From positions 445,036,001 through 445,100,000 of the forward strand of contig CM097882.1 in assembly GCA_044892505.1 (NCBI GenBank): 64,000 nucleotides of DNA, written 5' to 3'. The notes beneath the pieces are model-generated. The model was given only the letters and a program-made list of their open reading frames with translations, did no database searches and was not told the DNA's origin. Both the position numbers and the translations under genes were made by a program. The DNA is from Schmidtea nova. Lineage: Eukaryota. Shown here in pieces: positions 33,800-59,538 of this stretch (positions within the stretch are counted from its first letter, which is position 1; the number at the start of each line of letters is the position of its first letter).

Positions 33800-34563
33800 T
33801 GTTGGGTTATTATTCTGTAAGATCGGTTTACTGACCTGACTCCTCGTGCTCTTTAATTTTCGAAATCAATGAACCCAACACAGAACAATCTTTTTATTCG
33901 CGATCAACACAAATTACAGTTTTAGTTACACACACGTTTGATTAATTTACGCTTTCTTTCGATTCGGATTTGACTCTTTAATTCACAGGATGCTTTCTTA
34001 CTTTGTCTGTTTAGTCGTTTCAGGATCCTTTTCTATTCGCTTTCACAGTCTTTTTAATAATCTCTCTTTTGACTGTCCACTCGTCGGCCCGGTCCTCTGT
34101 TTTGCGCTGCCTTTTATAGTTCTCGCAAATAGCAATTAGGTTTTATCGATACCTAAAAGTTAATCAATTTCGGGTTTAATTGTCTTGCTGACAATTAATT
34201 TTGATTACCCTCGAATTGATTTTCCCTAATTGCCCCGACTTTGATCTCTCGGGTCTTTTGGCGCTCGGGCTTTCTTCATCGCTCGGGTTTCCCATTGCCT
34301 CGGGCTTCCCATTGTCTCGGGTTTCCCATTGAGCGATTAATTAATTTTAATTATTTTGTTTTTATTAAATAACTTTCTCTGGGGACCCCTTATTAAATTT
34401 CTATTATTATTTTTGGGTTCGTCTTTTGATTTGGTATTCAACCATACCCATTTCCCCCAGTGAATATTAATTTTACATTTTTGATAAATTTTAATTAATT
34501 TTTGCATTTTAATTTATTTCGATATTTCTTGTTACTTTTGTGATTTTTATACTAACCCCAACA
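33800..34563 (-). repeat. 3' LTR (764 bp)
   Basis: Near-identical to 49564-50327. I found only two differences (ttagtcg/ttaatcg and cccggtc/ccccgtc). Confidence 0.97.
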
Positions 34564-34580
34564 TATCTCACCCCTTTATT
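34564..34580 (-). promoter_or_regulatory. Polypurine tract
   Basis: The minus strand reads aaataaaggggtgagata immediately before the TGTTGGGG start of the 3' LTR. Confidence 0.75.
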
Positions 34581-35098
34581 TAAGATTCGTCCTCGAATCT
34601 ATTTTTCCATTTTTCTTGTTAACATGGTGGAGTCTACTCAATACTATAGATGTGCGTAATGATAATTGTTAATAAAAATTTTGATTATAAATAAGACGGT
34701 AGAGAAATCTCAATACCAAATATTATACAATTTAATATAATAATTTTGCCACTATTCTACTTCTGATAATATTAATATCAATAATAATTATACTTATAAT
34801 TGGTAACGATAATAGTAATAATAGTAACAATACTAACGATAATGATAATTTAATAATACTAATACTAATACTAATACTAATAACAACAAATATTATTAAT
34901 AATAATTTATTATAATCCTTTCATATTGATTATAATAACAATAATAATTAATTATAATAACTGTAATAATTATACTTATAACGATACTAATAACAATTGC
35001 AATAATGATAATAATGCTAATAATTCTAATATTAATGATATAAAAATTCTAATAATTCCAACAACAATGTTGTAATAATAATGATAATAATAATAATA

Positions 35099-35153
<55 letters not shown>

Positions 35154-35438
35154 GAATTCGAATAATAAATTGTTAACGATAAAGTAACAATAATTCATTT
35201 ATTTATTTATATTTTTATTTATTTTTTTTTTGCAATGGTCATATAATAATAATACTAACAATAAGTTGATAATTAATAGTTAATACNNNNNNNNNNNNNN
35301 NNNNNNNNNNNNNNNNNNNNNNNNNNNNNNNNNNNNNNNNNNNNNNNNNNNNNNNNNNNNNNNNNNNNNNNNNNNNNNNNNNNNNNNNNNNNNNNNNNNN
35401 NNNNNNNNNNNNNNNNNNNNNNNNNNNNTAATTGTTAA

Positions 35439-35771
35439 ATCGGCTTTGCCGATGTTTACTTTAAAATCGGCTTTGCCGATAATTATTTGTGTTACTTGTT
35501 TTAAATCGGCTTTGCCGATTATTATTTATTGCAAAAGCATCATCAAAATTGATATAGAACAATTTGTCAGCTCTCATAGAATCAAGCAGTGAAAATCATT
35601 CGATATCATTACCAACATTAAAATTTTTAAAACTGCATCTGATTGGATTTGAAAAGTTTTCATGTAATTAATTTTATTTCAATGATCGGCTTTGCCGATA
35701 ATTATTTGTTTTTCTTGTTTTAAATCGGCTTTGCCGATTATTATTTATTCCCTTTGATCGGCATAGCCGAA
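35439..35771. repeat. Array of six ATCGGC-NNN-GCCGAT palindromes
   Basis: Exact atcggctttgccgat at 35439, 35466, 35505, 35685 and 35724; variant atcggcatagccgaa at 35757. Confidence 0.9.
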
Positions 35772-36049
35772 AATAGAGTCAATGTTGGGTTGGGTGTTGA
35801 CTTGATATATAACCATCAGATAGAACTCATGCGATTGCAGATTGCAGTTTGATTTTTTTTTTTGATAATATTTTTGGTAACTTTGACGAAAATGATTTTA
35901 TGGCAAATCACATATTTCCGGTTGTTGTCTCTGATTGATTTTCATTACAAATCTTTCAATTTCTCTTTATGATTTTATAAAAAGGAACTTTGCAGCAGCA
36001 GAAGAGAAAAAGAAAATAGCTGCTCTGAAATGGTTTTCTATTCACATTT

Positions 36050-36420
36050 GGTTTCAATTGTTGGGCTATTTTTGGAATTGTGAAAAGGATCGATGGAAAA
36101 TTGGTATGTAGTCAATTTTTTTTTTTTTTTGTTAATTTTAGATTTACATAAATAATTTTGATTAATTTGATTAACTGTAGTGAGAAGATCTATAAACATT
36201 TTTAATGTTAATGATGATGATGATAATAATAATAAGTTTCAATTGTTGGAATATTTTTGGAATTGTGAAAAGGATCGATGGAAAATTGGTATGTAATCAA
36301 TTTTTATTTCTGTTAATTTTAGATTTGCATAAATAATTTTGATTAATTTGATTAACTGTAATGAGAAGATCTATAAACATTTTTAATATTAATGATGATG
36401 ATGATAATAATAAAAATAAA
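36050..36420. repeat. ~185-bp tandem duplication in the element's 3' region, amid (AAT)n tracts
   Basis: ggaattgtgaaaaggatcgatggaaaattggtatgt and gagaagatctataaacatttttaat each occur twice. Confidence 0.85.
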
Positions 36421-36421
36421 A

Positions 36422-36478
<57 letters not shown>

Positions 36479-37111
36479 CATGATAATACTACTAATATTT
36501 TGATAATGATATTAATAATAACAATTATTCTTTTAATAATAATAATTATAACAATATGTTCTCACTAATAATACAAATTTTTTTTTTGAACAAGNNNNNN
36601 NNNNNNNNNNNNNNNNNNNNNNNNNNNNNNNNNNNNNNNNNNNNNNNNNNNNNNNNNNNNNNNNNNNNNNNNNNNNNNNNNNNNNNNNNNNNNNNNNNNN
36701 NNNNNNNNNNNNNNNNNNNNNNNCGTAATAATACCAATAATTATTTATAACGTCTTTTATAATTGATCATAATATAAATGATAATGAATATACGTTACCC
36801 CTACTAATAATAATTATAACAATACTTTGATACTAATAATAATAATAATGAATTAATAATTATAATGATGATAATAACAATAATAATAATACTCTTAATA
36901 ATGTTTCTAACAATTTTTTTTTTTTTTTTTTTTTTTTTTTACTGACTATGATGTTAATGCTCTCGTATTGTATGAGGGTTATTTTTTATCATATTCATAA
37001 TTTCTATATTATTATTTTTTTGGTTTATTTAACTTATTTTGGGATGGGACGCCAATATCAAAGACAATAAAATATTTATTAATTAACTAAAATATATATA
37101 CATATATGTTT

Positions 37112-38578
37112 TTAGTCCAGTTTTAGTTCGATTTTTCCAACTTCACTTTTGTAACGGATAAATGTTTTTTCACGCTGGTAAATAATCCCATTTACCGTTA
37201 TGGTTTCACTTGCTTCTATTTGTGAATATTTTCTTTTTCTATTTTCAAGGTGGAGTATCGGTCCATTTTCATATGATATTGAAACTCTTGCGATAGACAA
37301 ACCGGTTATTACCTCAACGCTTTCTTCAATTGCCTCGAGATCATTTTCTGTTGCCAACTTCAATTCCGATTTCCCAATTTCCAAATCAACTTCCATATCC
37401 TCTGTCAAATCGATTTGCTCTGCCATTTTCTCAATTCCCACAGACAGGGCAATGGTTTTCGTAATTGCCGTGCTCGTCGTTGGCATTGTGTTTATGGTAT
37501 GAACTTTTCGATATTCCTCCAATGAATACTTCTTTGATGGGGTTGCTTTGGGAATTTGGATATCATCAATCCATGAATTTTCAATTTTTAAATATATTTT
37601 CCGAATGTTTTTGACATCTTCCAGGGCTGAATGGATGCGCACTTGCGTTTGTTCTCCAAGCCTTTGTTCAACCACAGTTTTCAGTTTGAAAAATTCACCT
37701 TTTCTCGATATCCCTTGCAACTGAAGTGCCTTTGCTGTGGACAAGTCTCGAATGCCATATAATTGATTTGTCCAAATTTTCAAATACTGGAGTTCTGCAT
37801 GCAAATCATGGCCAACCAATATTTTCCCAACAGTTAAATTCTGAATTTGTTTCATCTCCAAATATTGGTCGCATTGGTTCCTACTCGCAACCTCTGTTAT
37901 GCCATGTATTCTCGATTGGAAATGTCTCATTTTTCCTCTCGGCGTGAGGTATATATTTTTAATTATTTTCCCAAAATAATTCATAATGGCGATTGACAAT
38001 GGCACCATTTGTCCATTTTCTGATGTGCCGTATTCTGCGTCGATAAACAATATCCTGCTTCTTATTTCTTCTTGGTTTAATTCTTTTCGAATGAAGGATA
38101 ATCTTCTTTTCATCATATTTTCTGATATTGGTAGTAACGTTGGATCTGATGGCAATCCTGGCTCAGTTTGCGGAACTTCTTCTTTACTGTTTCTGAACCT
38201 TGTTTCCAGCGCGATTAGTGCGTCTTCATTTGCCGATCTAAGTTGCTTCTTTAATGCTTCCTCTCGCATTCTCCACGATGAGTCTTTGTGCATTTCCCAC
38301 CATATCCGCTGATTTTCGTCGATCATTTCCACTTTTCCTTTCAACACATGTAGTGTGACTTCTTCTTCATTCATTACTTTGCTATTTTCCATCAACTTTA
38401 CTCCTCCTTTTCTGCTTACTCTCAGGATTCTTGTTTTCATTCTTCTGTCATCGCTTCTTAAATAATTCGGTATTTTTGTATTTTCATTAATTTGGAATGG
38501 GCCTTGTCCCATATAGTTTCGATGCAGTTTGAGGTAGGCATCATAGATATTTGGTATCCACTGAATTTGTTCCATCAC
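37112..38578 (-). CDS. Element accessory ORF, 488 aa, with a REX4/ISG20-like DEDDh 3'-5' exonuclease domain (~37580-38060)
   Basis: ExoI ILFIDAEYG, then SIAIMNYFGKII, SRIHGIT, ExoII-like GKILVGHDLHAELQYL, IRDLS, and ExoIII IHSALEDVK (H-x4-D). Confidence 0.85.
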   Translation of the reverse strand: MMEQIQWIPNIYDAYLKLHRNYMGQGPFQINENTKIPNYLRSDDRRMKTRILRVSRKGGVKLMENSKVMNEEEVTLHVLKGKVEMIDENQRIWWEMHKDSSWRMREEALKKQLRSANEDALIALETRFRNSKEEVPQTEPGLPSDPTLLPISENMMKRRLSFIRKELNQEEIRSRILFIDAEYGTSENGQMVPLSIAIMNYFGKIIKNIYLTPRGKMRHFQSRIHGITEVASRNQCDQYLEMKQIQNLTVGKILVGHDLHAELQYLKIWTNQLYGIRDLSTAKALQLQGISRKGEFFKLKTVVEQRLGEQTQVRIHSALEDVKNIRKIYLKIENSWIDDIQIPKATPSKKYSLEEYRKVHTINTMPTTSTAITKTIALSVGIEKMAEQIDLTEDMEVDLEIGKSELKLATENDLEAIEESVEVITGLSIARVSISYENGPILHLENRKRKYSQIEASETITVNGIIYQREKTFIRYKSEVGKIELKLD

Positions 38579-38909
38579 TGAAATATTTATAATTTAAAAT
38601 TTTGTTTAATTTAAAAATTTGACGCTATCGCCAAGGTGGAATACCTTGAGTACCCCATCCTGGCTGATAACGGTATAAATAATAAATATTTAATAAAATT
38701 AATTACCTATTTAATTTTCAGTTTTATTCTAATTTATTAATTTAGGGATTCCCTTATATTTTTAATTTTATCTCTCTTCAACCAATCAAATCCGTTTCCG
38801 ATCGAAAGCGCAAATTTTACAATGAATCACATAAATATGGATAAAAGAAAGTTCATACTATTACCGTACAAATAAATTATTATAGTTGCATGCAAAATTA
38901 AATGTCTCA

Positions 38910-41900
38910 CTATACAAACGTTTCCTCGTAGACAATCCACGGTCTTGGTGTCCTGGATTGACGTACTGCATGATTGTTCATTTTTTGAAAGCAAATCAGT
39001 AGTGAGAGAAGAATAACAATGAGAAATGGTGTTGCACTAATAACAATAGTCGATAAAATAATACATGTTTTTGCATTGTCGTTAGATGAAGATGATAAGT
39101 TTTTCAGAATTGTCACATCATAGATATGAGAAGGAATGATTGTCGTTTGAAGTTTTTTTGTCATATTTTTATATACATAATTGTTTTTTGAATCATCGCT
39201 ATCAGTAATGTTATATGAAACTCGAACAAGTTTGTTTTCGACAAGAGTGATCTGCCATTGTTTGGAATGAGAAGTAAATCGATAATATTTGATTTTCATC
39301 ATAACAAATTTTGAATTCGATATAGATCTTAATCTTTGAAAATTTAAAATTTGATGTGAAATGTTACTTGTTAATATTGCCTGAATTTTCCCGCAATAAT
39401 GAATTTCGACTTTTTTATTAACTTCCGCTTGTCGGGATGCGTTTAATTTCTGATTTTTATATTCAAAGATGACTCGATTTGTTTCATTCACCAATGTCAC
39501 GGATTGTTGAGTGGAATAGATCTTGAACCATTGATTATCAATTTCAGTACCATTTTTCCGTAATGCTTTTTCGTAATAATGAATGACGAGATTATATGTT
39601 TTATGCAATTCTAAATTAACATAATGTACATAAGGTTTCTTGAGATTTAACGTATCGATCGTGTACTTTTCGAAAATAATTTTCACTTGTTGGGATTCAT
39701 GGGGTTCCCAATATACATTGATACCTTTTATTATTGGTTCTATTGATACTTTGCTATTTAATTTTTTTGTCCAAATTTCAATTTCAAATTGATGTTGTAT
39801 TTTTGTATTATTTTCTTGATATTGTTGTTGGGTTATTAACCAGGGATATTTGTAATTCATTGTTAAATCATGCGCAACGTACATATTGTTGTTAAAATTC
39901 AACTTTATTGGTGGATCAAAATAATTTAATAAATTATTTACTTTTATTTCGTCTCTTGGTTCACAATGATAGACCCATACCATTTGGGTACATGTTGCAT
40001 ATATATCAAATTTTTCTAAAAGTGGAACTCTTTTTATTGCATACATTGGAAAGATTTTAGTCGAATTTGTTCCCAAAACATTAATCATCATTACTGTTGC
40101 AATCAGTAATACTTTATTGATATATCCCAATGATGCGGAGTTTTTTGGATCCCTCTGCTTGCTGATCGTTTCATCTTGCGACTTTTTCTTTTTTGATCTT
40201 AGCTGATATTTATTGTCATCCATAACTGGCACTTTTTTGCATCTATTAGCATGAATGATAATTGTTCCGGCCTTTTTATTATTTTGTGGCCGTAGTTTTA
40301 AATTAGTTTCAGTGGTATCGCATACCAGATATGGTCCTTTAAATGGTCTTTGTAGCTTTGGTGATAAACCCTTAGCTGGCTCTGGTTTGTTTACATAAAC
40401 CAAATCTCCTATTTCAATACCGTGCGCATGCGCTCGTTTGTCATAACACTCTTTATAACTTTCCTGTTGATGTTTTATTTTGAGTCCTGCTTGAACCCAT
40501 ACTGACTGTAGTCTTTCTTGCATGACAACTTTATAGTTCGATACATCCATATATTGCGATATAGGTGCTTGAAATTTTAAATCTATTGGCATATTATTCC
40601 GTCGTAGATACATAAGATAGAAAGGTGTTTCGCCAGTACTTTCATTTACTGAATTTCGATATGCGAATAAACACGGTTTAATGAATAGATCCCAATCTTT
40701 TTGCTTTCTGTTTACGTAAGATGATATCATATTGATTAATGTTCCGTTGAACCTTTCAACTAACCCATCTGTTTGCGGATGGTACGGTGATGTACTGAGT
40801 TTCAATATTCCGAATAATTCCGTTATTGAATTAAATAATTCGCTTTGAAAGTTTGTTCCTTGATCTGTAAGTAACTTCTTTGGTGCTCCATATCGAAAGA
40901 TAATGTTTTCTACAAATATTTTTGCAACTGTTTCTGCCTTTTGATTCTGCATTGCATAGGCTTCTGGCCATTTAGTTAGATAATCGCAAAATACAACGAT
41001 ATACTTATTGCCATTAATTGTTTCCGGTAGTGGACCAACAATGTCCATTGCTGTCATTTCCATTGGAGCTCCTGGTACAGGCATAGGCTTTAATGGTACT
41101 TTTATTTTCCTTCCTGTATTTCGTCTGGTCAGGCACACTCCACAAGATTGACACCATTGTCTAACGTCTTGTTCCATGGTGTCCCAATAATATTTCAATT
41201 TCAACCTTGACAATGTTTTTCTAGCTGATAAATGTCCTCCTAACGCCCCGTCATGGTATATCAACAGTAATGCTTTTCGATGTTTTGTTGGAACAATAAT
41301 TAACAAGTTTTCATTTTTAACACATTTTAACAGACCGTCATGGATAATATATTTATGTTTTTCTTTAACTATGTGTTTCCAGTCGCTCTCTTTTTTGATA
41401 GTGACTGCATTTTTCCGTATTTGTTTTAATTCATCATCATTTTCTTGATCATATTGTAATTCTTTCATATTGTTTGCGGTTTTAATTGCCATAAATATTG
41501 TGTCATTATAATTTGTTTCATTCTGATTATTATAATTTTCTTCAGGAATTCTCGATAAGGTATCCGCATTTGCATTTGATTTACCTGTGCGACATTTAAT
41601 TTCAAAATCATATTCCTGTAGAGCGATTGACCATCTTATCAGCTTACTGGCTGAATCTCTATGCTTCATGAGCCATTGTAGTGGATTATGATCTGTAAAT
41701 ACAATAAATTTCCTACCAATTAGATATTGTCTGAACGTGGTTATTCCATAAACTAGTGCTAACGTCTCCTTTTCAATGGTAGAATAATTCTTTTCATGAG
41801 GTTTCAATGTTCTACTAGCATAGGCAATAACGTGATCTTTCTCGCCGTTAACCTTTTGTCCGAGTACGGCGCCTAATGCAAAATTACTTGCGTCAGTCAT

Positions 41901-44396
41901 TAAGATGAAAGGTATTTTAAAATTTGGGCATCTCAAAATCGGCTTTTTAATTAGACTTTCTTTGAGCAAATCAAATGCTTCTTGCTGAGCTTTTGTCCAT
42001 TTAAATTGAGCTTGTTTCTTTAATAGCATATTCAAAGGCTGTGCCACGTTTGAAAAACTTTTAATAAATTTTCTATAATAACTAGCTAATCCAAGAAATT
42101 GTCGAACTTGATCTACATCTTTCGGAATTGGGTAATTTTTAATTTTCTCTACATTTTCTGGGTTTGGTTGTAATCCATTGCGTGAAATAATATGACCAAC
42201 ATAAACTACTTCTGATTTCCCCCATTCGCATTTCGAGGGTTTTATTTTCAAATTTGCTTCTAATAATCGTTTGAATACTGTTTCTACATCCTTTAGGTGT
42301 TCCTGAAAACTACTTGAAAATATTATTATATCATCAATATAAACTAATGCATGTGGAATGTCACGCAAGACAAAATTCATACCTCTTTGGAACGTGGCTG
42401 GCGCTCCTGTTAAGCCGAATGGTAATACATTGAATTCATACAAACCTTTGCCGTCTGAAAATGCTGTTTTTCTTCTATCTTCTTCTTTTACTTTAAACTG
42501 ATTATATCCTTTATTTAGATCAATTACTGTGAAGAATTTCACTTCTCCCATCTGATCAAACATTTCTTGTGGAACTGGAATTGGATACGTATCTTTTCTT
42601 GTAACCTGATTTAATTTTCGGTAGTCAACACAAAATCTTAAATCACCGTCTTTCTTTTTGACAACGACTATTGATGATGAGAATGGTGATGAACTATCTC
42701 GTATTATTTTAAATTCTTTCATTGCTTTGATTTGTCGATCACTTTCTTCTTGATGTATATATGGAATTCTATACGGTCTTAATTTGATAGGTGTTTCGTC
42801 GAGTAGTGGTATCTCGTGTTCTATCACTTGAGTAAGTCCCAAATCATATTCGTGCCTTGCAAACACTTTATCGTATCTTCTCAGTAACGCCATAAATTCT
42901 CGTTTTTGTACCTCAGTTAAATCGTTGCTAACAACTTGTGGTTTTTTATAGATTTTAATGTTCCTCGGTAACTTTTGATCCTTTTCTGTTCTAAACTTTG
43001 TTAACCTTCCCAACTTTGTTTTGGGTTTCATTTGAATGGCTTTTGCGCTATGATTTGCTATTCTTACTGGTACTGTTTGATCCTTGATTTTTACTATCTC
43101 ATCACACATTGGAATATCATATTTTTCTACTAGCTTCTGATTTGGCTCAAATATACATTCGTCATCTGATGCACCTGTTACATTTGCATAACATATTACT
43201 TCGCTTCTCGCTGGCAATTCCATTGCTTGATTTAGAAAGACTTCTTTGTTTGCAATTTTACTGGGCTGTTCCTTTATTAATTTCCCTGTAGTTAAATCAA
43301 GAGCAATTCCTTGTAATTGCCGCATAACATCCATCCCAACTAAACATATTACGGGACTTTTTCTTATAACTGTTACATTATGCGTTATTTCTTTATCACC
43401 GATAGTTAATTTAGCTTCTAATTTCCCAATTACATCTAAACAGTTCTGCGACATTGATTTGATCTTTTTACTCGTTGGTTTCATATTTACTCTTTCTTTA
43501 CGCGTTAACATTTTGTCTGACACTATTGTGTGACTTGAACCTGAATCCAACAAGGCTTCGACCGTTCTTTCATTAAACTGTATGTTTATCCGAGGTTGTT
43601 TGGCTTCTCTCCCCATGGTCATCAGCGCATAACTACATGGTAGACCAAGCATGTTTTTCCGTTCAATTTCCGCACTTGTTGGCTCGATATTTTCTAATTC
43701 ACATTTGATATGATTTACCGGTTTCATTTCCTTTAATCTTTCACTTGGATACATAGGTGCTGTTGGCACAAATGCTGGTGTATACCATTTTGTAAGAGTA
43801 TCAATTCCACTCAGCTTTGGTATTGGTTCAAGTAAAAATGTTGATTCTGGCTTTATTTCGCTTCCGACTCTTCCTTTTTGAAAATATTTCGGTTCATTTT
43901 TATTCTTATCATTACCGTCATTCTTGTTATTATTTCTGTCACCAAATTCACATAAGGATTCTTCGCTCTTTTGATCGCTTTTCAATTGTGCTTTCACACT
44001 TGCCATTTCTTTATATTGATGATGTGTAATAAAAAATTTTGCCAAAAATGGAATGCAACTAATGATAATTTTCCATGACCATCCTGATATTACGTATATT
44101 CTATGAGCAGATAGCACTTGAGATATGATTACCTTTAACGTTACTGCGACCACATAAATTCCAATTAAACCAGCACATGCTTGTCCTAAGAACATAAACT
44201 TTCCCCAAATCTTTTCCATCGTTTTATACGTGGCTCTTTTGAAATGATCAGGTGTTAATAAATATTCATAATTTATTTTATCCTCTCCATTTGGTAGTAT
44301 GGTGTCAATCATTTCTGAGATTATTCTCTCTTTCTTTGAAGGGAATAATAAATTTCTTTGGGCTTCTTCAATATCATCACTTGCATAAAACCCCAT
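38910..44396 (-). CDS. Env C-terminus/TM, aspartic protease, RT, RNase H, integrase, then a second type-I membrane protein (1828 aa frame)
   Basis: WGKFMFLGQACAGLIG TM; LLDSGSS; RFCVDYRKLN, LPFGLTGAP, VYIDDII; MTDASNFALGAVL; H..GGH..C..C, DIVGPLP, TDQG, GLVERFN, FKGPY; hydrophobic VLLIATVMMINVLG and CIILSTIVISATPFLIVILLSLLICF. Confidence 0.95.
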   Translation of the reverse strand: MGFYASDDIEEAQRNLLFPSKKERIISEMIDTILPNGEDKINYEYLLTPDHFKRATYKTMEKIWGKFMFLGQACAGLIGIYVVAVTLKVIISQVLSAHRIYVISGWSWKIIISCIPFLAKFFITHHQYKEMASVKAQLKSDQKSEESLCEFGDRNNNKNDGNDKNKNEPKYFQKGRVGSEIKPESTFLLEPIPKLSGIDTLTKWYTPAFVPTAPMYPSERLKEMKPVNHIKCELENIEPTSAEIERKNMLGLPCSYALMTMGREAKQPRINIQFNERTVEALLDSGSSHTIVSDKMLTRKERVNMKPTSKKIKSMSQNCLDVIGKLEAKLTIGDKEITHNVTVIRKSPVICLVGMDVMRQLQGIALDLTTGKLIKEQPSKIANKEVFLNQAMELPARSEVICYANVTGASDDECIFEPNQKLVEKYDIPMCDEIVKIKDQTVPVRIANHSAKAIQMKPKTKLGRLTKFRTEKDQKLPRNIKIYKKPQVVSNDLTEVQKREFMALLRRYDKVFARHEYDLGLTQVIEHEIPLLDETPIKLRPYRIPYIHQEESDRQIKAMKEFKIIRDSSSPFSSSIVVVKKKDGDLRFCVDYRKLNQVTRKDTYPIPVPQEMFDQMGEVKFFTVIDLNKGYNQFKVKEEDRRKTAFSDGKGLYEFNVLPFGLTGAPATFQRGMNFVLRDIPHALVYIDDIIIFSSSFQEHLKDVETVFKRLLEANLKIKPSKCEWGKSEVVYVGHIISRNGLQPNPENVEKIKNYPIPKDVDQVRQFLGLASYYRKFIKSFSNVAQPLNMLLKKQAQFKWTKAQQEAFDLLKESLIKKPILRCPNFKIPFILMTDASNFALGAVLGQKVNGEKDHVIAYASRTLKPHEKNYSTIEKETLALVYGITTFRQYLIGRKFIVFTDHNPLQWLMKHRDSASKLIRWSIALQEYDFEIKCRTGKSNANADTLSRIPEENYNNQNETNYNDTIFMAIKTANNMKELQYDQENDDELKQIRKNAVTIKKESDWKHIVKEKHKYIIHDGLLKCVKNENLLIIVPTKHRKALLLIYHDGALGGHLSARKTLSRLKLKYYWDTMEQDVRQWCQSCGVCLTRRNTGRKIKVPLKPMPVPGAPMEMTAMDIVGPLPETINGNKYIVVFCDYLTKWPEAYAMQNQKAETVAKIFVENIIFRYGAPKKLLTDQGTNFQSELFNSITELFGILKLSTSPYHPQTDGLVERFNGTLINMISSYVNRKQKDWDLFIKPCLFAYRNSVNESTGETPFYLMYLRRNNMPIDLKFQAPISQYMDVSNYKVVMQERLQSVWVQAGLKIKHQQESYKECYDKRAHAHGIEIGDLVYVNKPEPAKGLSPKLQRPFKGPYLVCDTTETNLKLRPQNNKKAGTIIIHANRCKKVPVMDDNKYQLRSKKKKSQDETISKQRDPKNSASLGYINKVLLIATVMMINVLGTNSTKIFPMYAIKRVPLLEKFDIYATCTQMVWVYHCEPRDEIKVNNLLNYFDPPIKLNFNNNMYVAHDLTMNYKYPWLITQQQYQENNTKIQHQFEIEIWTKKLNSKVSIEPIIKGINVYWEPHESQQVKIIFEKYTIDTLNLKKPYVHYVNLELHKTYNLVIHYYEKALRKNGTEIDNQWFKIYSTQQSVTLVNETNRVIFEYKNQKLNASRQAEVNKKVEIHYCGKIQAILTSNISHQILNFQRLRSISNSKFVMMKIKYYRFTSHSKQWQITLVENKLVRVSYNITDSDDSKNNYVYKNMTKKLQTTIIPSHIYDVTILKNLSSSSNDNAKTCIILSTIVISATPFLIVILLSLLICFQKMNNHAVRQSRTPRPWIVYEETFV

Positions 44397-45460
44397 TTGG
44401 GCAATTTTTTTAATGATGTAAAATTTACCAAGTATTCTAGAGTGATCAATTCTAATTTATCCGGCGTTTTTACTCCTCGGTAATCTGGTAACGCAATCCA
44501 ATGATCTGGTGCTAATCGGTATAACGGAGCAAGTAATCTATTGCATTGAAGAACCTTTGGTTTAACGTGCTCCTCCAATAGTATCCTAGTTATTGGTTCC
44601 ATAAACCGCATTTTTCCGTTCATGCTCACTGGTAATTCGTTTGTGCACTTTTCATATTTCATTATTTTTACTGTTACCTCTTTACATCTGTAGCTATACA
44701 AAGCTTCTCCAAATATCCTAGCAAATACTCCATTTTCTGATATCAACATAGGCGCAACTAAATTTGGGTTTGTAATTACCATTGCCATTCGATTTCGAAG
44801 TATCTCTTTATTTAATTTACAATCATTAAGGATCATTTCTCGATATATATTCTCCATGATGTTCTGGCTAAAATGAAACAAAAAATCAATTTTATTATTA
44901 AAATAGTGAGTTAATTTAATCTCTGTCGAATGTATTCTCGTTTTAGCTTCGTGCACCATCATTTTGGATACATAAACGCCTTTATAATTTGTTGCATATA
45001 CCATTTGACCGCATTTACTGGTGATATCCTTTTTTATGAAGCGCATGCTATCCGTTGGCATGGTCGACATCAAAACCGTTGCCGTTTTCTTCATCCATAT
45101 CGGCGTTGATCTAATTGTTATATTTGGGGCATAATTATTATTAAAATTGTCTGGTCGTTCTCGAAACTGTTCTCCACTCAATTCTTTGAAATTCATAGTT
45201 TTTAAGTGCGCTAAATTACATTCCTGGGTTTTGACATTATACACAAGAATGGACTCTCCTGTTTGGCAATTGGTTTGTTTCATGTTACAAAACGGATGTG
45301 TCTGTAATTTCCCCGTATCATCATCAAAAGCTCCTTCAAATTCTCTCAATTCCGTTAAATATTCCTCTATTACTACAGACTGTTTGATTATCTTCCCATC
45401 TACTTTGTATGGTTCTCCTTCACAATCTCCATCTTGTTTCATTACTCCTTTTACGACCAC
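44321..45460 (-). CDS. Middle part of a chuvirus-like glycoprotein ectodomain; in frame with the upstream ORF after a single TAA
   Basis: Cys-rich pattern GDCEGEPY, FCNMKQTNC, CGQMVYATNY, LNDCKLNKEILRN.L, GEALYSYRCKEV, CTNELPV, RFMEPITRIL, CNRLLAP.Y..DHW. Confidence 0.8.
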   Translation of the reverse strand: MVVKGVMKQDGDCEGEPYKVDGKIIKQSVVIEEYLTELREFEGAFDDDTGKLQTHPFCNMKQTNCQTGESILVYNVKTQECNLAHLKTMNFKELSGEQFRERPDNFNNNYAPNITIRSTPIWMKKTATVLMSTMPTDSMRFIKKDITSKCGQMVYATNYKGVYVSKMMVHEAKTRIHSTEIKLTHYFNNKIDFLFHFSQNIMENIYREMILNDCKLNKEILRNRMAMVITNPNLVAPMLISENGVFARIFGEALYSYRCKEVTVKIMKYEKCTNELPVSMNGKMRFMEPITRILLEEHVKPKVLQCNRLLAPLYRLAPDHWIALPDYRGVKTPDKLELITLEYLVNFTSLKKLPKWGFMQVMILKKPKEIYYSLQRKRE

Positions 45461-45463
45461 TGT

Positions 45464-48400
45464 TTATCTAATTCTATGATTTCGCTTTGCTTTTAATTTA
45501 ATTTCCGAATTTATTTTTAATTCTCCTGTTTGAAAAGCAGCGAGGCAATTTTCCGGCATTACTTCCACTGGCCGTGGGATTGTATACATTTTTATCATTG
45601 AAGTATGGCTCCACTTGCCACAGTAAAATATAAAGGAAGTGCGCTTAACTATACATTCTCTTACTGTTGTTCGTCGTAAGTCAGATTCTTGATATACATG
45701 ATATTTCACATCATTTTCTATCTTTAATTTTCTTGGATATGCGTCTGAACACTCTGCCATATCTACAACTGAATAAATTTTCCCCATTTCTGTTTTTGAA
45801 CAGTCATACGCTGTCATACTCGTTACCTGTGTGATTCCAGCACATAAAATAATTATCATAAAGATTGCCCAAGGAAACATTATTGTCTTCCTCTTTTCTG
45901 GACTAACTCTGACATTTAGCGATTTTTGAGGTAAACTTTCTTTATTACTTTCGTTTTCATTTATTATAAACATTTTCATCAACTTGTCCCAACCTCCAAT
46001 CTTTTTAACCCAGCTCATTAAGTATTCGTTTATATTTCGAGCAGCAGTATCTATTAAATTTTCTAACTCATCTGATTTCATGATCTTATGAGCACCAATT
46101 TCCAAAATTACATAAGCTAAGCTCATTAATGTTACTTCTGTAGTAATTCCATTTCTAGTTAATTTCTCGATTACATCTTTGTCACAAAATCTTTCATTTT
46201 TACCAAACCTTTGCATGATGCTAGGGAGTCTGTTTCTCACTTCATTTACTATGCCTCCCAATTCATATTTTTCATCTACCTCCATTTCACACATTGGGTA
46301 TACTGCTTTAGTCAAGCCTTTTAATAATGCTTTGGTTTTATCTACTTCCTGTTCCAATCGCACAAGACCTTTCTTTATTTCATATAAAGTTCTCGGCTTC
46401 TTAGTATTAATTTCATTATTCATTTCGCCTTTAAGCTCCGCCAATTCTTGCACTTTTGTTAATTTATACTCATTTTTGTTATTCTTTTTGGTTTCCTCAT
46501 CATCCTTTATTACTTCGTTTATTTCTTTGATTTCTTTAACCTCATTTTCATCATCATTTTCTCTGTCTGTATTTGATCCATCAGATTTGTCTATTAATTC
46601 AAATTTCTGTTCCTTAATCACTGTTACACAATTTATCAAATATCCATTTCCACTATCGGAACGTAAATATCCATTTTCATCTAACTCTTGTGGCACAAAT
46701 CCACAATCAAATAAATATTCATCATCATCTAATTCTTCTCCTTTAAACATAAATATAATAATTCCATCTTTTCCTATTCTTTCAGCAGCTCTTTTTCTTA
46801 ATTTCCGAACTTTTGTGCACCAATGCTCTACTATATATTCAGTTTTACCATAATCTTCGTAATCTAATGCTATTGTAAACGGATTCAATTCTATTGTAGT
46901 TTTTCTAAGTTTTTTGCCTAATTGTCGTACTAAATTTCTTAAATTTTCTCTATATTTTGATTTTTCATACATGTATGGCCTTATTGTATCTATAATATCT
47001 AATTTACTATCTCTCTCAATTTCAATTTCTTCTATCAATCTTAATTTTCTAATAATTTCATTTGCATCCCCTTTACACAAAATATCCTTTAATTCCCTAC
47101 AAATTTTCTGTGATTCATCTTTTATTATTTCATTGTTTCTATTCATAAATACTATCTGTACTCTGTTTTTATTCTCAGGTGTAATACCACAATCTATTAA
47201 TATTTCCTCGTCATTTAAACATCTATTTTTAAATTTTACTTCCTTTATCCATTTTCCACTATTTTCCTCTAATCTCTTTTTAAATTCCTTTACGCACTCT
47301 CCTATTTCACAACGAATACACATCACATCATTATTACTTTCATCAACAACATCAATAACAATAAAATCTAACCATGTTTTCTCTCTGAACAATTTTCCAA
47401 ATATTTTCATTATTTTCTCAGTTTCAGTTTTATCTTTTGAATTCTCATTATTATAATCAGCACACATTTCAATTACAGTTTTTAATTTTTGTATACTCAT
47501 CGGCATTTGACTCAATTTCTTTAGCATTGTCATTATTTTTGACGTCTCTTTTACTTTTGCCTCCATTAAAACTTTTGTTCTCGACAAAATCATTTTTATT
47601 TTTTCTGTTTCTAATTCATCATTTACTACTTCCTTCATTATATCTGTCTCTGACCCTTCTGATTGCGATTCATACATCATATGATTATCAGCTTCTTCGT
47701 CTGATTCAAATTTACACATTAATTGATCCAATCGTTTACCCATTTGCTTTATCTCTTTTTCAATTCTTTCGTTAGCATCATCGGGTTGTACAAAAGCCAC
47801 ATTATCAAATTTTGATTTATCATTTTGAAATCTGATTTTCTTTAATATAGGTCTTTGAAATTTTCCATTATTCTTTGGGCATGATCTAGCCATGTGTCCA
47901 TATCCTCTGCATGAGTGACATTGAATTTGTCCTTGGAGATTCACTCTATCTCTCTGTGGTGATGGTGATGTTGACGGAGATCTCGATCTTGCAAAGCAAT
48001 TTCGTGAAGAATGGCCTTTCCTTCCACAATTATAACACTGCATATTATCACTAGCTCTTTGATCATTGTTGCCCCTTCTCTTGAAGGTTTTCTCGACATT
48101 GTCTTTCAACCAATCTGGCCACATCTTTCTTGGACTCCGTTGCGAATTATTTTTAAACCAACATTGACTATTACTGTGCCCTTTTCGTTGGCAATTATCA
48201 CACTGAACAGGACTTGGGCTTCTTCGAGCGCTGTTTTTAAACCAACATTGATTTACTTGATGTCCCAATCTTTTACAATAACTACATTGAATTGGCCTTT
48301 CTCTCTCTTCATTTGGGCTGTTTGACGACTTTCTTGGCTCGAATTTCACTCTGAACTTTGGTGATGGACTAGTTGATTTTTGCAAAAGAGTCTCTCTAAC

Positions 48401-49066
48401 TGGAGTTACCGATTCATCTCTCGTTTCATTTACAATTGCAAAGGATTCTGTTGTCTGTTGTGTGGTTTTGAGATTCAATTCAATCTTCATGGCCTTTTTA
48501 ATCAATTCATCGAAATTGTTGAAATCTACATAACACAGTGCTTTTTTGATCTCTCTTTTTACTCCTGACAGAAATTGATCTTGTAGTAATTCTTTCACTT
48601 GTTTCGTCACATCCGGTTGTTCTGGTTTCGCTTCAAAGGCTTTTTCTGCAAGAGTTGTTAAATGATAAGCGAACTCACTTACCGATTCATTTGACTTTTG
48701 TACTCGGTTGTAAAATTTTTGGCGCATTATTCTTTTGATATCGCCACCGATTAACTTGGCTGCCAATGCATCTTTTAGCTTTGTCCAATCATTTGCGATA
48801 AGTCTTTTGTCGATCTGTTGCCAAGCTTCTCGTGCTGCACCTTTCAAATATAATGGCAACCTTTGTACCATAATTGATTGGCTCCATCCGTATGCTGTCG
48901 CGTACATATAGTAATCTGCCATGAAATCAACAAAATCAATTGGGTCTCCTCCGTATTGCTCTACTGGCAATTTCTGACAACTTGCAAAATCACTACCATT
49001 GTTTGTGGGAGTAGTAGACATGGGTATTTGATCATTATTATTTGAATTACTAGCCATATTTTCCAC
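45464..49066 (-). CDS. Gag (capsid-like region plus 4 CCHC knuckles), 2 ubiquitin-like domains, Bcl-2-like domain, TM/signal peptide and Env N-terminus (1200 aa)
   Basis: YGGDP..F...Y...A..YGW..LPLYLKGAAREAW (retrotransposon gag); four Cx2Cx4Hx4C; FKNRCLNDEEILIDCGI and FKGEELDDDEYLFDCGF; LMSWVKKIGGWDKLMKMF; PWAIFMIIILCAGITQVTS-MTAYDC. Confidence 0.92.
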   Translation of the reverse strand: MENMASNSNNNDQIPMSTTPTNNGSDFASCQKLPVEQYGGDPIDFVDFMADYYMYATAYGWSQSIMVQRLPLYLKGAAREAWQQIDKRLIANDWTKLKDALAAKLIGGDIKRIMRQKFYNRVQKSNESVSEFAYHLTTLAEKAFEAKPEQPDVTKQVKELLQDQFLSGVKREIKKALCYVDFNNFDELIKKAMKIELNLKTTQQTTESFAIVNETRDESVTPVRETLLQKSTSPSPKFRVKFEPRKSSNSPNEERERPIQCSYCKRLGHQVNQCWFKNSARRSPSPVQCDNCQRKGHSNSQCWFKNNSQRSPRKMWPDWLKDNVEKTFKRRGNNDQRASDNMQCYNCGRKGHSSRNCFARSRSPSTSPSPQRDRVNLQGQIQCHSCRGYGHMARSCPKNNGKFQRPILKKIRFQNDKSKFDNVAFVQPDDANERIEKEIKQMGKRLDQLMCKFESDEEADNHMMYESQSEGSETDIMKEVVNDELETEKIKMILSRTKVLMEAKVKETSKIMTMLKKLSQMPMSIQKLKTVIEMCADYNNENSKDKTETEKIMKIFGKLFREKTWLDFIVIDVVDESNNDVMCIRCEIGECVKEFKKRLEENSGKWIKEVKFKNRCLNDEEILIDCGITPENKNRVQIVFMNRNNEIIKDESQKICRELKDILCKGDANEIIRKLRLIEEIEIERDSKLDIIDTIRPYMYEKSKYRENLRNLVRQLGKKLRKTTIELNPFTIALDYEDYGKTEYIVEHWCTKVRKLRKRAAERIGKDGIIIFMFKGEELDDDEYLFDCGFVPQELDENGYLRSDSGNGYLINCVTVIKEQKFELIDKSDGSNTDRENDDENEVKEIKEINEVIKDDEETKKNNKNEYKLTKVQELAELKGEMNNEINTKKPRTLYEIKKGLVRLEQEVDKTKALLKGLTKAVYPMCEMEVDEKYELGGIVNEVRNRLPSIMQRFGKNERFCDKDVIEKLTRNGITTEVTLMSLAYVILEIGAHKIMKSDELENLIDTAARNINEYLMSWVKKIGGWDKLMKMFIINENESNKESLPQKSLNVRVSPEKRKTIMFPWAIFMIIILCAGITQVTSMTAYDCSKTEMGKIYSVVDMAECSDAYPRKLKIENDVKYHVYQESDLRRTTVRECIVKRTSFIFYCGKWSHTSMIKMYTIPRPVEVMPENCLAAFQTGELKINSEIKLKAKRNHRIR

Positions 49067-49542
49067 TTGTTTCTTATTTCGAAGATTATAAGATTTCTTT
49101 TGTACAACTTTTTCTCGTCTAAATTTTAAAATATTACAATTTTTAATTTTACCTTTTGTTTTAATTTTGACTTGATTTTTGGCAATTGGATTTTATCGAT
49201 TCTTTCTTTTCTGTTCAAGCTTTTTACTCTTTTATTTCAACTGATACAATTTATTTTCACTCTTTTTTTTTTTCAACAATTAATCTCGTTTTGTTTAGTT
49301 TTCTAACTTTAATTTCTCTTTTTACAATTATTCGATTTTACTTTTCAACAATTTTCTCTCTGATTTTATTCAATTATGTCGATTAATATCGTTTTCTTTA
49401 TTTATCAAATTCAATTTTCTATAGCAATTTATCTCTCCTTTTCTGTGATTCACTCCTTCACCGACCTTTAGATCACGTCGGTTATTATCGTAACAATTTT
49501 TCAACTATTCAATATTTTCACTATGCTCTCACCGACCCTCGA

Positions 49543-49560
49543 ATCACGTCGGGCTCACCA
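49543..49560 (-). promoter_or_regulatory. Primer-binding site, tRNA-Trp type
   Basis: The minus strand reads TGGTGAGCCCGACGTGAT, 3 nt inside the 5' LTR. It differs by one base from the avian retrovirus tRNA-Trp PBS TGGTGACCCCGACGTGAT. Confidence 0.85.
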
Positions 49561-49563
49561 AAA

Positions 49564-50327
49564 TGTTGGGTTATTATTCTGTAAGATCGGTTTACTGACC
49601 TGACTCCTCGTGCTCTTTAATTTTCGAAATCAATGAACCCAACACAGAACAATCTTTTTATTCGCGATCAACACAAATTACAGTTTTAGTTACACACACG
49701 TTTGATTAATTTACGCTTTCTTTCGATTCGGATTTGACTCTTTAATTCACAGGATGCTTTCTTACTTTGTCTGTTTAATCGTTTCAGGATCCTTTTCTAT
49801 TCGCTTTCACAGTCTTTTTAATAATCTCTCTTTTGACTGTCCACTCGTCGGCCCCGTCCTCTGTTTTGCGCTGCCTTTTATAGTTCTCGCAAATAGCAAT
49901 TAGGTTTTATCGATACCTAAAAGTTAATCAATTTCGGGTTTAATTGTCTTGCTGACAATTAATTTTGATTACCCTCGAATTGATTTTCCCTAATTGCCCC
50001 GACTTTGATCTCTCGGGTCTTTTGGCGCTCGGGCTTTCTTCATCGCTCGGGTTTCCCATTGCCTCGGGCTTCCCATTGTCTCGGGTTTCCCATTGAGCGA
50101 TTAATTAATTTTAATTATTTTGTTTTTATTAAATAACTTTCTCTGGGGACCCCTTATTAAATTTCTATTATTATTTTTGGGTTCGTCTTTTGATTTGGTA
50201 TTCAACCATACCCATTTCCCCCAGTGAATATTAATTTTACATTTTTGATAAATTTTAATTAATTTTTGCATTTTAATTTATTTCGATATTTCTTGTTACT
50301 TTTGTGATTTTTATACTAACCCCAACA
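49564..50327 (-). repeat. 5' LTR (764 bp) with TATA (TATAAAAG, 49875-49882), AATAAA (49657-49662) and ~18-bp U3 repeats (~50010-50095)
   Basis: Matches 33800-34563; motifs read on the minus strand. Confidence 0.97.
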
Positions 50328-53889: not shown

Positions 53890-56015
53890 TATTAGCCACA
53901 GCACTACGGGTATTAATTGAATCCATAAGACAAATTATAATAACACGTTTATTAATTAAAAATCCCAATCTTATTAAAACAAATTATAACGATAATTTGT
54001 TTGAGGAGTTTTTAAAAATAATAATTAATGTATAAGTAAGGATTTCAACATACAATCAAACACGCGCAGCATCATACCAATATATTTTAATTCAAATTAC
54101 AAAAACGCCTCACATTCCCCCTTTTTTAAAATTCTTTAACCACTCAATATTTCTCGTGACGACACTTCCATTTTCCAATTTTATTTCATAACTTCGATCA
54201 TAAATCTTTTTAGTAATTACACCTGAACCCATATATCTATTATCACCTTTATTTTGAACATTTACTTTGATCAACACGCAATCTCCAATTTGAAATTCAC
54301 GATTTATCGTCTGATTGATTTTTTCTTCTTCCAAAATTTCTGAGAACCATTCACTAAAGATCTTTTTCCCAAACACCATTTCAGCTGGAGTCTTTCTAAT
54401 AGTTTTTTGAAAAGTTGAATTCATCATAAACTGTACTTCGGGAAGAACATCTACCCATGATTTATGTCTTTTATCTTTGAGTGTTATCTGTATTGCATCT
54501 CTAATTGTACGGAATTGTCTCTCAATCTGTCCATTTGCTGAATGATGATATGGACTTGAATAATTAATTTCAATATTGTGGAATTCTGCAAAATCTTTCA
54601 TTAGCTTTGATTCAAATAATTTACCTATGTCACAGTTTATTATCCTTGGTGCTCCAAACTTCATTATCCACTCTTCTTTCAGTAATCTTACCACTGTATT
54701 TTCATCTTGCGATTTTGCTGCATGTAAAGAAATAAATTTACTATGATGATCTATATTCCCAAGAATATATCTTTCTCCTCTCATTGCAAGTTGTAATGGA
54801 CCACAAAAATCTACATAGATTTTTTCAAATTATTTCGAATCACTTTTGCAAATTATTTCTTCTTTTGTTTTAGTTGTATCAACCTTTCTTTTCTGGCAGT
54901 TTTCACAGGCTTGTACAACATTACGAATAGATTGCTCCAAATCTTTCATATGAAAATTATTTGATACATATATTTTTACTTTTTAAGCACCCGCGTGACA
55001 GAGCTTTTTATGATATTCTATGATGAATTTGAACTTGTTTTCTTCTGGAATCCAAATTTTATTATTATTGGTCATAATCGCTCCGTTGACATATTTAAAA
55101 AATGTTTTATCTGGCATCATACTAATATTTTCTTTTATATTTTCAATTTCTTTTGAGTTCTTTTGCCATTTATTTTCAATATTTTCAGTCATCAGTGTCA
55201 ACAATCTTGTTTTTAATTTACCCATTTTAGGATTTTCATGAATCATTTGACATTGAACACATGTCTCACATTCTTTTCTAGATAGAGCGTCGGCATTATT
55301 GTGGTTATCACTTTTTCTGTATTGAATCTCCATGTCCAGACCACTAAGATGGTTAATCCAAGTTTGAAATTGCGGAGTAATAGCTTTCTTTGTCTTCATC
55401 ATAAATGTAATGGCTTTGTGATCCGTTCTCAAAATAAACTTTTTACCATATAAATAATGCTTAAAATGAACAGTAAAATAAAATATAGATAATAATTCCT
55501 TTCTTGTTATACAATAGCCTAATTCGTGTTTATTCATAGCTCGGGATCCATATGCGATTACTCTTTCTTTATTTCCATCTTTTTGAGATAGAACAGCACC
55601 GATGCAGTCAAAACTTGCATCTGTATCCAAAATGAATGGTTTAGAAAAATCTGGAAACTTCAATAATGGTGTAGACGTTAATTTTAGTTTTAAATTTTGA
55701 AATGAAGTTTCACACTCATCAGTCCACATAAGCTTCTTTTGTTTACTTCCACATAACGCTTCTAATACTTTGGAATTTTTGGTGTAATTCTCTATAAATC
55801 TGCGATAGTAATTTGCCAGGCCTAAAAACCCTCTCAAGCTTTTACGCATTTAGGTCTTTCAAAATTTTTAATAGTTTCAATCTTGCTTTCATCCGTACGT
55901 ATTCCATTTTCACTAATGATATGACCCAAAAATTTTACTTCTTTCCTTTTGAATTGACATTTTGCTGGACTTATTTTAAGATTTGCTAATTTAATCATTT
56001 GAAAAACCTTTTCAA
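53890..56015 (-). mobile_element. 5'-truncated Ty3/gypsy element (RT end, RNase H, integrase, PPT, 3' LTR start), inactivated
   Basis: KCQFKRKEVKFLGHII, LRGFLGLANYYR, LDTDASFDCIGAVL, RTDHKA, VDFCGPL, ANGQIER. PPT aaaaaaggggggaa at 54115-54128 is followed by TGTGAGG at 54114. Frameshift at ~55850 and stops at 54983 and ~54830. The far LTR end is not resolved. Confidence 0.88.
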
Positions 56016-56693: not shown

Positions 56694-57519
56694 ATCAACA
56701 TTTTTAATTTTTCTTTTTTCTTTATTTATGCCTCAAATTGAAATTATTCGTTTTTCTCGCTGTAACAATGTATAGACAGAATTTTATTCTCTACAAGATG
56801 GCCAAAATGAAAATTTAAAATATTGTGTTTTGCGCGCTGCACACATGTTTTGTTGTTATTAATTGGTTTCAATTGAAAAAATTAATTTAAATTCATTTGA
56901 TGGAAAATTCGACATATTTTCGGGACGAAAACTGGCCAGGCGAATTTAACCTTTTGTCTCGCTTGGCAGAGATGGATAAATCGTTTTTGGAAATTAGCGG
57001 TAAGTTGAATTTTATTGTTAATTATTTAAATATCTCAAATGAAAATTTAAATAGTAATTTTGTACAAAGTAATTCGGGATATTTTGATAAAAGTAAAAAT
57101 AAATTTGCTAATGTAGATTCTGATAATAATGTTTTCATTTGATAACTATGAAGGTGATAACTATGTTGATGATTTTAAAATTCCTTATCCTAAAGTGTAT
57201 AATCTTTGCAATAAGCATAATAAAAATGAAACTTTTAATAAAACCTTCACAGAGACTAATCTATATCGAAATCTCAAAAACTCTGAATATAAGAATACTA
57301 CGATTAAGAAATTAAATGAACACAATGTAGAGAAAAATTTATTAGAAAATCAAAGTTTTGGAGGTCGATCTGATTCAGCTTTAGATCGAATTGTTTCTGT
57401 TTATGGTTCTTTGGAGTCCCCGGGCAGGGACATTCATGATCTGAAAATAACAATTTTTAATAAAAATCAAAAAAAATAAATCTAATTTACTTGATATTGA
57501 AAATTCTAATTTACTTGAA

Positions 57520-59532: not shown

Positions 59533-59538
59533 AGGTGC

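Follow-up and report, generated by a model that had tools for sequence, protein, structure and literature searches.

A selected, predicted FN3-array membrane glycoprotein after the integrase of a planarian errantivirus with a gB-type fusogen

A Ty3/gypsy retrotransposon of Schmidtea nova, which belongs to a known envelope-bearing lineage, encodes a real, selected protein that we predict to be a second surface glycoprotein and the function of which we infer. This conserved, predicted type I FN3 protein has a PDZ-type tail and ends a polyprotein of about 3,400 residues; in our preferred reading, to which we give about as much credence as doubt, the host's signal peptidase likely cuts it loose, and it likely serves adhesion or targeting beside a gB-type fusogen. 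The copy described here lies in a 64,000-nucleotide stretch of contig CM097882.1 (assembly GCA_044892505.1, positions 445,036,001 to 445,100,000), hereafter the window, to whose positions all coordinates refer.

The element occupies 33800-50327 of the minus strand, 16.5 kb between its LTR ends, in the order gag, weak ubiquitin-like and Bcl-2-like stretches, gB-type fusogen, PR-RT-RH-IN, FN3 membrane protein and a separate DEDD-exonuclease-like ORF; its parts, given below, are all on that strand. The 5' LTR (49564-50327, 764 nt) and the 3' LTR (33800-34563) agree at 762 of 765 compared letters, and an ATAT target-site duplication flanks the element, which together indicate a young insertion. 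Directly after the 5' LTR comes a primer-binding site (PBS; about 49539-49560), which we take to resemble the 3' end of tRNA-Trp. Gag, with CCHC knuckles, shares 45890-49057 with the ubiquitin-like and Bcl-2-like stretches that follow it, both below the Pfam cut-off (E 0.24-0.35 for the Bcl-2-like stretch). The next product is a gB-type (Monjiviricetes-like) fusion glycoprotein (44103-45889), matched by PF24664 in three pieces (E 6e-16, 4e-36 and 1e-21) and, by hydropathy, bearing its own internal signal and a TM segment at 44201-44103; in the window copy a stop (45464-45466) and a shift of frame somewhere in 44321-44456 break it. The pol enzymes, from protease through RT and RNase H to integrase (H2C2, rve and GPY/F; all by Pfam), share one frame at 40221-43601. 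With its LTRs, PBS, PR-RT-RH-IN order and a PF24664 glycoprotein between gag and pol, the element fits the published planarian GAG-ENV-POL errantivirus lineage of HSV/gB type, as a Ty3/gypsy member, and its fusogen is identical to a supplement row for Smed_errantivirus_1 at 70 of 84 residues, counted by eye (PMC13524379, in part). Some 2.5 kb between the exonuclease ORF and the 3' LTR (34600-37050) are AT-rich and non-coding, and include AAT microsatellites as well as short repeats. Elsewhere in the window, a remnant of an unrelated gypsy element (54110-55849, minus strand; RNase H and integrase) has no membrane tail, and the plus strand (57451-60285) holds a 693-aa frame, one stop and then a 250-aa frame that by eye resembles a Ulp1-type protease.

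This is a high-copy element, with 3,923 candidate places in the genome. Twenty-four of the 104 best-scoring copies lie in open frames of 3,387-3,442 codons, which suggests that the native product is one polyprotein; in the window, a frame of 1848 aa (44456-38910, minus strand) is open from the fusogen end through PR-RT-RH-IN to a stop at 38912-38910. Sequence near-identical to window 36900-44500 also occurs in sequencing runs of three organism codes from one study, at depths of 4-20 in two and hundreds to thousands in the third; these depths, and those given below for the exonuclease ORF, come from four runs, as contigs of that study, and indicate presence only. The sharing across three codes reflects either low-copy sharing between species or cross-sample carry-over.

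Past the integrase the frame continues for about 400 codons; counted from the hydrophobic core, 400 aa precede the stop. An earlier, sequence-only reading had proposed a further type I membrane protein at this place, joined to the integrase and unlike a fusogen, and the open frame, a signal/TM pair in hydropathy and the lack of a fusogen fold bear that proposal out. Pfam assigns no family to the last 436 residues of the 1848-aa frame, over whose whole length hydropathy picks out three segments: the fusogen TM, a signal-like stretch and a TM helix. The stretch begins with a basic linker (40131-40220) that leads from the integrase end, with its YxLR motif, to an internal signal sequence (40062-40130); the metagenome homologue P0003 begins with the same integrase end. 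The signal has a basic n-side, an h-region at 40115-40074 (KD19 maximum 1.77 and KD11 2.4 over 40130-40074) and a predicted signal-peptidase site before 40061, where cleavage would be expected. The 31 residues preceding the h-region hold 7-9 K/R versus 1-2 D/E in all six subfamilies (A to F, introduced below), and 13 of the 15 rows extending to the aligned site carry small residues at its -3/-1 positions; of the exceptions, L045 breaks the pattern and P0003 has its site a few residues on. Between subfamily A and subfamilies B, C and E, signal and basic linker are 67-72% identical.

Three predicted FN3 domains follow (39762-40028, 39489-39761 and 39210-39488), then a Ser/Thr/Asn-rich disordered stalk (39075-39209; pLDDT under 50, 20-42% identity between subfamilies), a transmembrane helix (38985-39068, KD11 3.5; hydropathy segment 39074-38976, KD19 2.79) that is found in all six subfamilies and in the homologues P0002 and P0004, and a cytoplasmic tail with its stop (38910-38984). 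Eight of the nine N-x-S/T sequons fall in the ectodomain, versus 4.0 expected (5000 shuffles, p 0.03), and one, the NGT of domain 2, is kept in all six subfamilies. The signal-like segment, several sequons, TM and short tail first read from the letters all stand. Domain 3 is net basic (+11 in the window, +6 to +13 in subfamilies A-E, +9 in P0002, +4 in P0004), with a charge of 0 in subfamily F. The signal and TM calls rest on hydropathy, the aligned (-3,-1) site and the AlphaFold helix of a homologue, and a type I membrane glycoprotein is what we predict, in agreement with hydropathy, cleavage site, charge bias and the sequons that are conserved. A luminal ectodomain is the most likely arrangement, given the kept signal-peptidase pattern, the basic integrase-facing side and the invariant sequon. 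Comparison of the subfamilies revealed no conserved start codon or splice acceptor before the signal, which, unlike the situation at the exonuclease ORF, fits expression as part of a polyprotein.

AlphaFold, run on a 17-row alignment, places three beta-sandwiches at residues 10-285 (pLDDT at least 70 at 260 of 329 residues and about 90 for the three predicted FN3 domains; pTM 0.69). These predicted folds match the seven-stranded sandwich of FN3 structures. The FN3-like segment noticed earlier corresponds to the second of the predicted domains; that there are three in total had been missed. VIA aligns domain 1 at Z 8.2 (rmsd 3.2, 86 residues, model 13-103) and domain 2 at Z 9.0 (rmsd 2.0, 77 residues, to fibronectin FN6, 6msv), and gives Z 10.0 (rmsd 4.7, 166 aligned residues) to fibronectin FN9-10; domain 3 comes from AlphaFold and from three-domain VIA rows with 227-250 aligned residues. 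The best Foldseek rows were three-domain fibronectin fragments (FN10-12, E 5e-10), then neogenin, PTPRD, Tie2, CD45 and contactins, with low whole-chain TM-scores (0.2-0.3) because the domain angles differ. In a viral structure library the named rows were mostly phage or algal-virus FN3 and tail proteins. The model of P0004, 22% identical, repeats the three-FN3 picture, in partial dependence on the first since its alignment shared rows. Language-model features also point to fn3 as a lead (score 0.89), and L-x5-Y, an FN3 motif, is visible in the alignment in domains 1 and 2.

Sequence searches were largely silent on this fold: the Pfam fn3 profile (PF00041) matches none of the 17 alignment members at E 10, and PDB sequence searches returned nothing with A1 and a single match with A4, a neogenin domain against domain 2 (E 1.8). 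Neither WSxWS (absent in 17 of 17 rows) nor RGD occurs, and the alignment has no invariant cysteine and no cytokine-receptor cysteine pattern. No fusogen appears among the named Foldseek, viral-library or VIA rows, PF24664 does not match the post-integrase stretch, and a fusion protein of class I, II or III is rejected since the model consists of three FN3 sandwiches. The ectodomain is a predicted FN3 array and not a fusogen, with no single cellular family standing out. FN3 is a generic fold (Z 8-10; also cytokine receptors and phage tail fibres), so it names no function.

The tail ends in ETFV (38924-38913), a pattern (S/T-x-V/I/L at the C-end) that we take to be that of class I PDZ ligands; of the tail, the sequence-only reading had recognized the shortness, which holds, and overlooked this conserved motif. 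ETFV ends subfamilies A, B and C, ETIV or ETIL subfamily E, ETRV subfamily F, VTQV P0002 and STLV P0004, so that an S/T-x-V/L end is present in five of six subfamilies and in both metagenome homologues that reach the C-end, with varying neighbouring tail residues. The chance of a PDZ-type end is about 0.026 per C-end, for sequences that are related and hence for dependent trials. The motif is lost in subfamily D, some copies of which nonetheless have open frames of 3,345 codons. A YxxPhi sorting motif was also considered for the tail and rejected, as it is not conserved. The same five residues, EETFV, end a 527-aa coiled-coil accessory ORF (L118:1125-2705 and L122:1124-2704, plus strand) of another high-copy, apparently non-autonomous element with SUMO-like/protease/ankyrin, RING-TRAF-MATH and BIR-RING parts, in the stretches read of which there was no RT, IN or fusogen. 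Such a match would arise by chance at about 5e-7 per C-end, and reflects either a common PDZ target or module exchange. Two elements with one C-end, compared as sequences, are hinting at repeated addressing of a host PDZ scaffold.

The FN3 module is present in all 104 best-scoring, near-identical copies among the 3,923 places (400 of 400 residues at 97-100%), stop-free in 95 of them, and in all 12 loci chosen by their fusogen, where it is once frame-shifted and once six residues short. Distant homologues used as queries revealed six subfamilies in this genome, A (that of the window) to F, with 30-52% identity to A overall (B, C and E about 50%, D about 35%, F about 30%). Two of the checks proposed with the sequence-only reading, AlphaFold with Foldseek and conservation among copies, returned a predicted three-FN3 ectodomain and a module spread over copies and subfamilies; the predicted signal/TM pair, the predicted folded domain and the presence in other copies, on the lack of any of which that reading was to fall, were each found.

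Between subfamilies A, B and C, dN/dS of the FN3 module is 0.16-0.23 in 11 of 11 pairs (0.02-0.05 for pol), rough ratios because dS is near saturation (1.5-1.9); within subfamilies it is 0.30-0.81 on few changes, which look near-neutral. These sequence comparisons indicate that the module is under purifying selection between subfamilies. Its subfamily identities (34-64%) are lower than those of fusogen (71-93%) and integrase (77-92%), with a dN that is 2-6 times that of the fusogen, as would be expected for a host-facing surface protein. Farther afield, three matches among 1.84 billion protein representatives (E 3e-6 to 2.5e-5, 22-27% identity) are all metagenome singletons; P0004 is a full signal-to-tail protein, and the integrase C-end with which P0003 begins suggests that the integrase-FN3 fusion is old. 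Word-indexed protein searches, for the protein alone or within longer ones, found nothing, the profile recovered only its own member P0004, and a scan of metagenome contigs gave 100 pattern matches, none of them confirmed.

A second downstream product, the separate DEDD-type 3'-5' exonuclease-like ORF (37112..38575), has D-x-E and H-x4-D motifs by eye and an RNase_T match below the cut-off (E 0.027). In all four subfamilies examined (A, B, C and E), a splice-acceptor-like site (window 38576-38600) consists of a T-rich tract and an AG 2-6 nt before the ATG, and two donor-like sites lie just after the PBS (about 49455-49535); the exonuclease is thus probably made from spliced RNA. Contigs from runs X2 and X4, amounting to about 1-2% of the local depth, join across the whole ORF (37107-38581), and these are a natural variant without it. 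In a subfamily D copy (L085:2896-3350), an 86-aa coiled-coil frame replaces the exonuclease.

In the preferred reading, genomic RNA would be translated into one chain that the ribosome threads through the ER membrane at two internal signals, yielding Gag, fusogen, Pol and FN3 protein in a 1:1 ratio, with Gag and Pol cytosolic and the two glycoproteins luminal. Pol would stay tethered in the cytosol, to the fusogen tail on one side and the FN3 signal stub on the other, until released by the element's own protease, and host signal peptidase would release the FN3 protein. Its ETFV end may then bind a host PDZ scaffold, keeping the protein where cells touch or membranes are polarised; there the ectodomain, with its basic membrane-proximal domain, could bind a surface glycan, matrix or receptor. 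Particles or producer cells would thereby be brought to host-cell surfaces for attachment or cell-to-cell passage, and fusion would be left to the gB-type protein. An adhesion role is suggested by the best fold matches, which come from FN3 arrays of receptors and of matrix and adhesion proteins (fibronectin, neogenin, PTPRD, contactin and Tie2); the missing RGD, subfamily D without a PDZ motif and subfamily F without a basic domain 3 speak against it. A bolder version is possible, though we hold it tentatively and think it more probably wrong than right: the lineage would be an invertebrate endogenous retrovirus with two-protein entry, in which fusion falls to a class III fusogen and attachment to an FN3 protein dedicated to it, directed to cell junctions by its PDZ tail. 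Like flaviviruses, the lineage would release both of them, along with Gag and Pol, from a single polyprotein by means of internal signals. If true, this would be a division of labour of the herpes- or paramyxovirus type, undescribed for LTR retroelements.

Alternatively, the FN3 protein may be a receptor decoy, captured from the host as the sequence-only reading had offered, or a signalling modulator: on the producer cell it would either sequester a host ligand or block the entry receptor by occupying it (interference). We think this role unlikely without finding it far-fetched. The fold matches include class I/II cytokine receptors, Tie2, the insulin receptor and neogenin, and the module evolves fast, as a decoy might, but the cytokine-receptor hallmarks noted above (WSxWS and the cysteine pattern) are missing. 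Likewise, the Bcl-2-like and ubiquitin-like stretches of the same polyprotein recall Burro, as anti-apoptotic, host-modulating cargo of the lineage (PMC6431247, in part), and poxvirus cytokine decoys are on record (PMC5998005, in part), but no host FN3 donor emerged in an exon-wise profile search of 837 frames from 30 of 92 host fn3 loci (best E 0.012). The kept membrane anchor and PDZ tail, and expression tied 1:1 to virion proteins, also argue against a decoy.

A receptor-binding partner of the fusogen was the other function offered by the sequence-only reading; a dedicated physical partner of this kind, which would also trigger the gB-type protein, seems to us quite improbable. Herpesvirus gB requires such partners, of gH/gL or gD type, though to our knowledge gH/gL are not FN3 proteins. 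The module does accompany the fusogen at all 12 loci and in all six subfamilies, and the two would be made in equal amounts; against this, it evolves much faster than the fusogen, and a survey of 1,512 errantiviruses, in the portions available to us, describes gB-type elements without a partner protein (PMC13524379). The histories of the two parts also differ, weakly, in trees of five taxa (subfamily E integrase being taken from a same-copy slice without a stop): in the fusogen tree B joins E (support 99/92), and the AU test rejects each of the three C+E trees (p 0.01 or less), whereas integrase and FN3 trees prefer C+E (support 54-77), with FN3 not rejecting B+E (p 0.19-0.35). This suggests that the fusogen was swapped on its own, a weak indication since FN3 does not reject B+E. 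Subfamily E (L079-L083 versus L006, L021, L025, L085 and L086) combines a B-like fusogen with a C-like integrase, which points to probable recombination between subfamilies. In a search for a fusogen-bearing sister lineage without the FN3 module, an ankyrin query led mostly to host-like genes and a BIR query to a non-autonomous element that had no RT, no IN and no fusogen.

We regard it as highly doubtful that signal and TM serve chiefly as a topological anchor, securing Pol at the membrane by its integrase end so that it is packaged, with the ectodomain secondary. The well-kept signal and linker would suit this, as would the separation of Gag and Pol by the fusogen, so that Pol presumably cannot enter as Gag-Pol; the fusogen TM already tethers Pol, however, and a 280-residue folded ectodomain, a conserved sequon and a PDZ tail, all under selection, would be superfluous for anchoring. 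A neutral passenger or chance open frame, to which AT-rich sequence (29% GC), the lack of a Pfam match and near-neutral changes among very recent copies might have pointed, is refuted by a between-subfamily dN/dS of about 0.2 over saturated synonymous distance and by the confident AlphaFold fold, with the signal/TM/PDZ architecture kept down to 22% identity.

A single envelope protein is the usual assumption for envelope-bearing retroelements. A long-kept, predicted second surface glycoprotein with a PDZ motif suggests attachment or targeting separate from fusion. Its ectodomain ligand and PDZ partner would offer a handle on the passage of gB-type errantiviruses from cell to cell, both on its occurrence and on its mechanism, which is of interest in animals in which the germ line is supplied by stem cells. 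With a family this young and this abundant in the genome, the question can be tested on native material.

Among cellular proteins, the FN3 protein is most like tandem FN3 arrays such as fibronectin FN9-14, neogenin, LAR/PTPRD, contactins, Tie2 and CD45. Type I topology and PDZ tails are common among such surface proteins. It differs from them in its low identity (8-14%), in having no Ig, catalytic or signalling domain, and in being intron-free and encoded in a polyprotein. PDZ-linked or contact-seeking membrane proteins of retroelements provide functional parallels: hDlg1 colocalises with Gag and Env of HTLV-1, whose Env tail it binds (PMC3395148, in part), and Drosophila MDG1-group sORF2 is a membrane protein at cell contacts that aids spread (PMC11952523, in part). 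Both are fusogens themselves, whereas the window's PDZ motif sits on a separate non-fusogenic protein; the likeness is one of working and not of homology. A planarian nidovirus carries FN2, a fold different from FN3 (PMC6211748, in part). We found no description of an FN3 module or PDZ-binding motif in LTR/Ty3 elements in the literature covered, which included portions of PMC6431247 and PMC5408684 and lay outside Repbase, subscription journals and preprint supplements.

The closest known elements are Smed_errantivirus_1-6, GAG-ENV-POL Ty3/gypsy elements with an HSV/gB-type env and listed spans of 14.5-18 kb (Chary and Hayashi 2026, PMC13524379, in part), with which the window element shares the gag-env-pol order, gB-type fusogen and multi-copy state. 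By description, the post-integrase membrane protein sets it apart: the terms 'fibronectin', 'FN3' and 'exonuclease' do not occur in the searchable main text and seven supplements of that paper, figures aside, nor 'accessory' in its main text. The element family and gene order are already published, and the post-integrase FN3 module is apparently undescribed. Burro1-4/GYPSM1 likewise encode one polyprotein, with gag, SUMO/ubiquitin-like, BCL2-like and env parts in frame before PR-RT-RH-IN, plus accessory ORFs (PMC6431247, in part), and the BCL2-like, env, PR order fits the window element, though its Bcl-2 match is the weak one given above. At 16.5 kb and about 3,400 aa it is around half the size of Burro (>30 kb, 4,873-5,140 aa), has no Pfam match to MATH, BIR, ankyrin or dUTPase, unlike Burro, and carries an FN3 membrane protein after the integrase, the word 'fibronectin' being absent from the portions of the Burro review available to us (PMC6431247). 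In the bdelloid LTR elements Juno, Vesta and TelKA, ORF3 after pol encodes a DEDD exonuclease or small TM proteins; it is a separate ORF and an alternative to env, with TM ORFs of 210-230 aa (PMC5408684, in part). The window element, unlike these, has all three together: a fusogen, an in-frame FN3 protein and an exonuclease.
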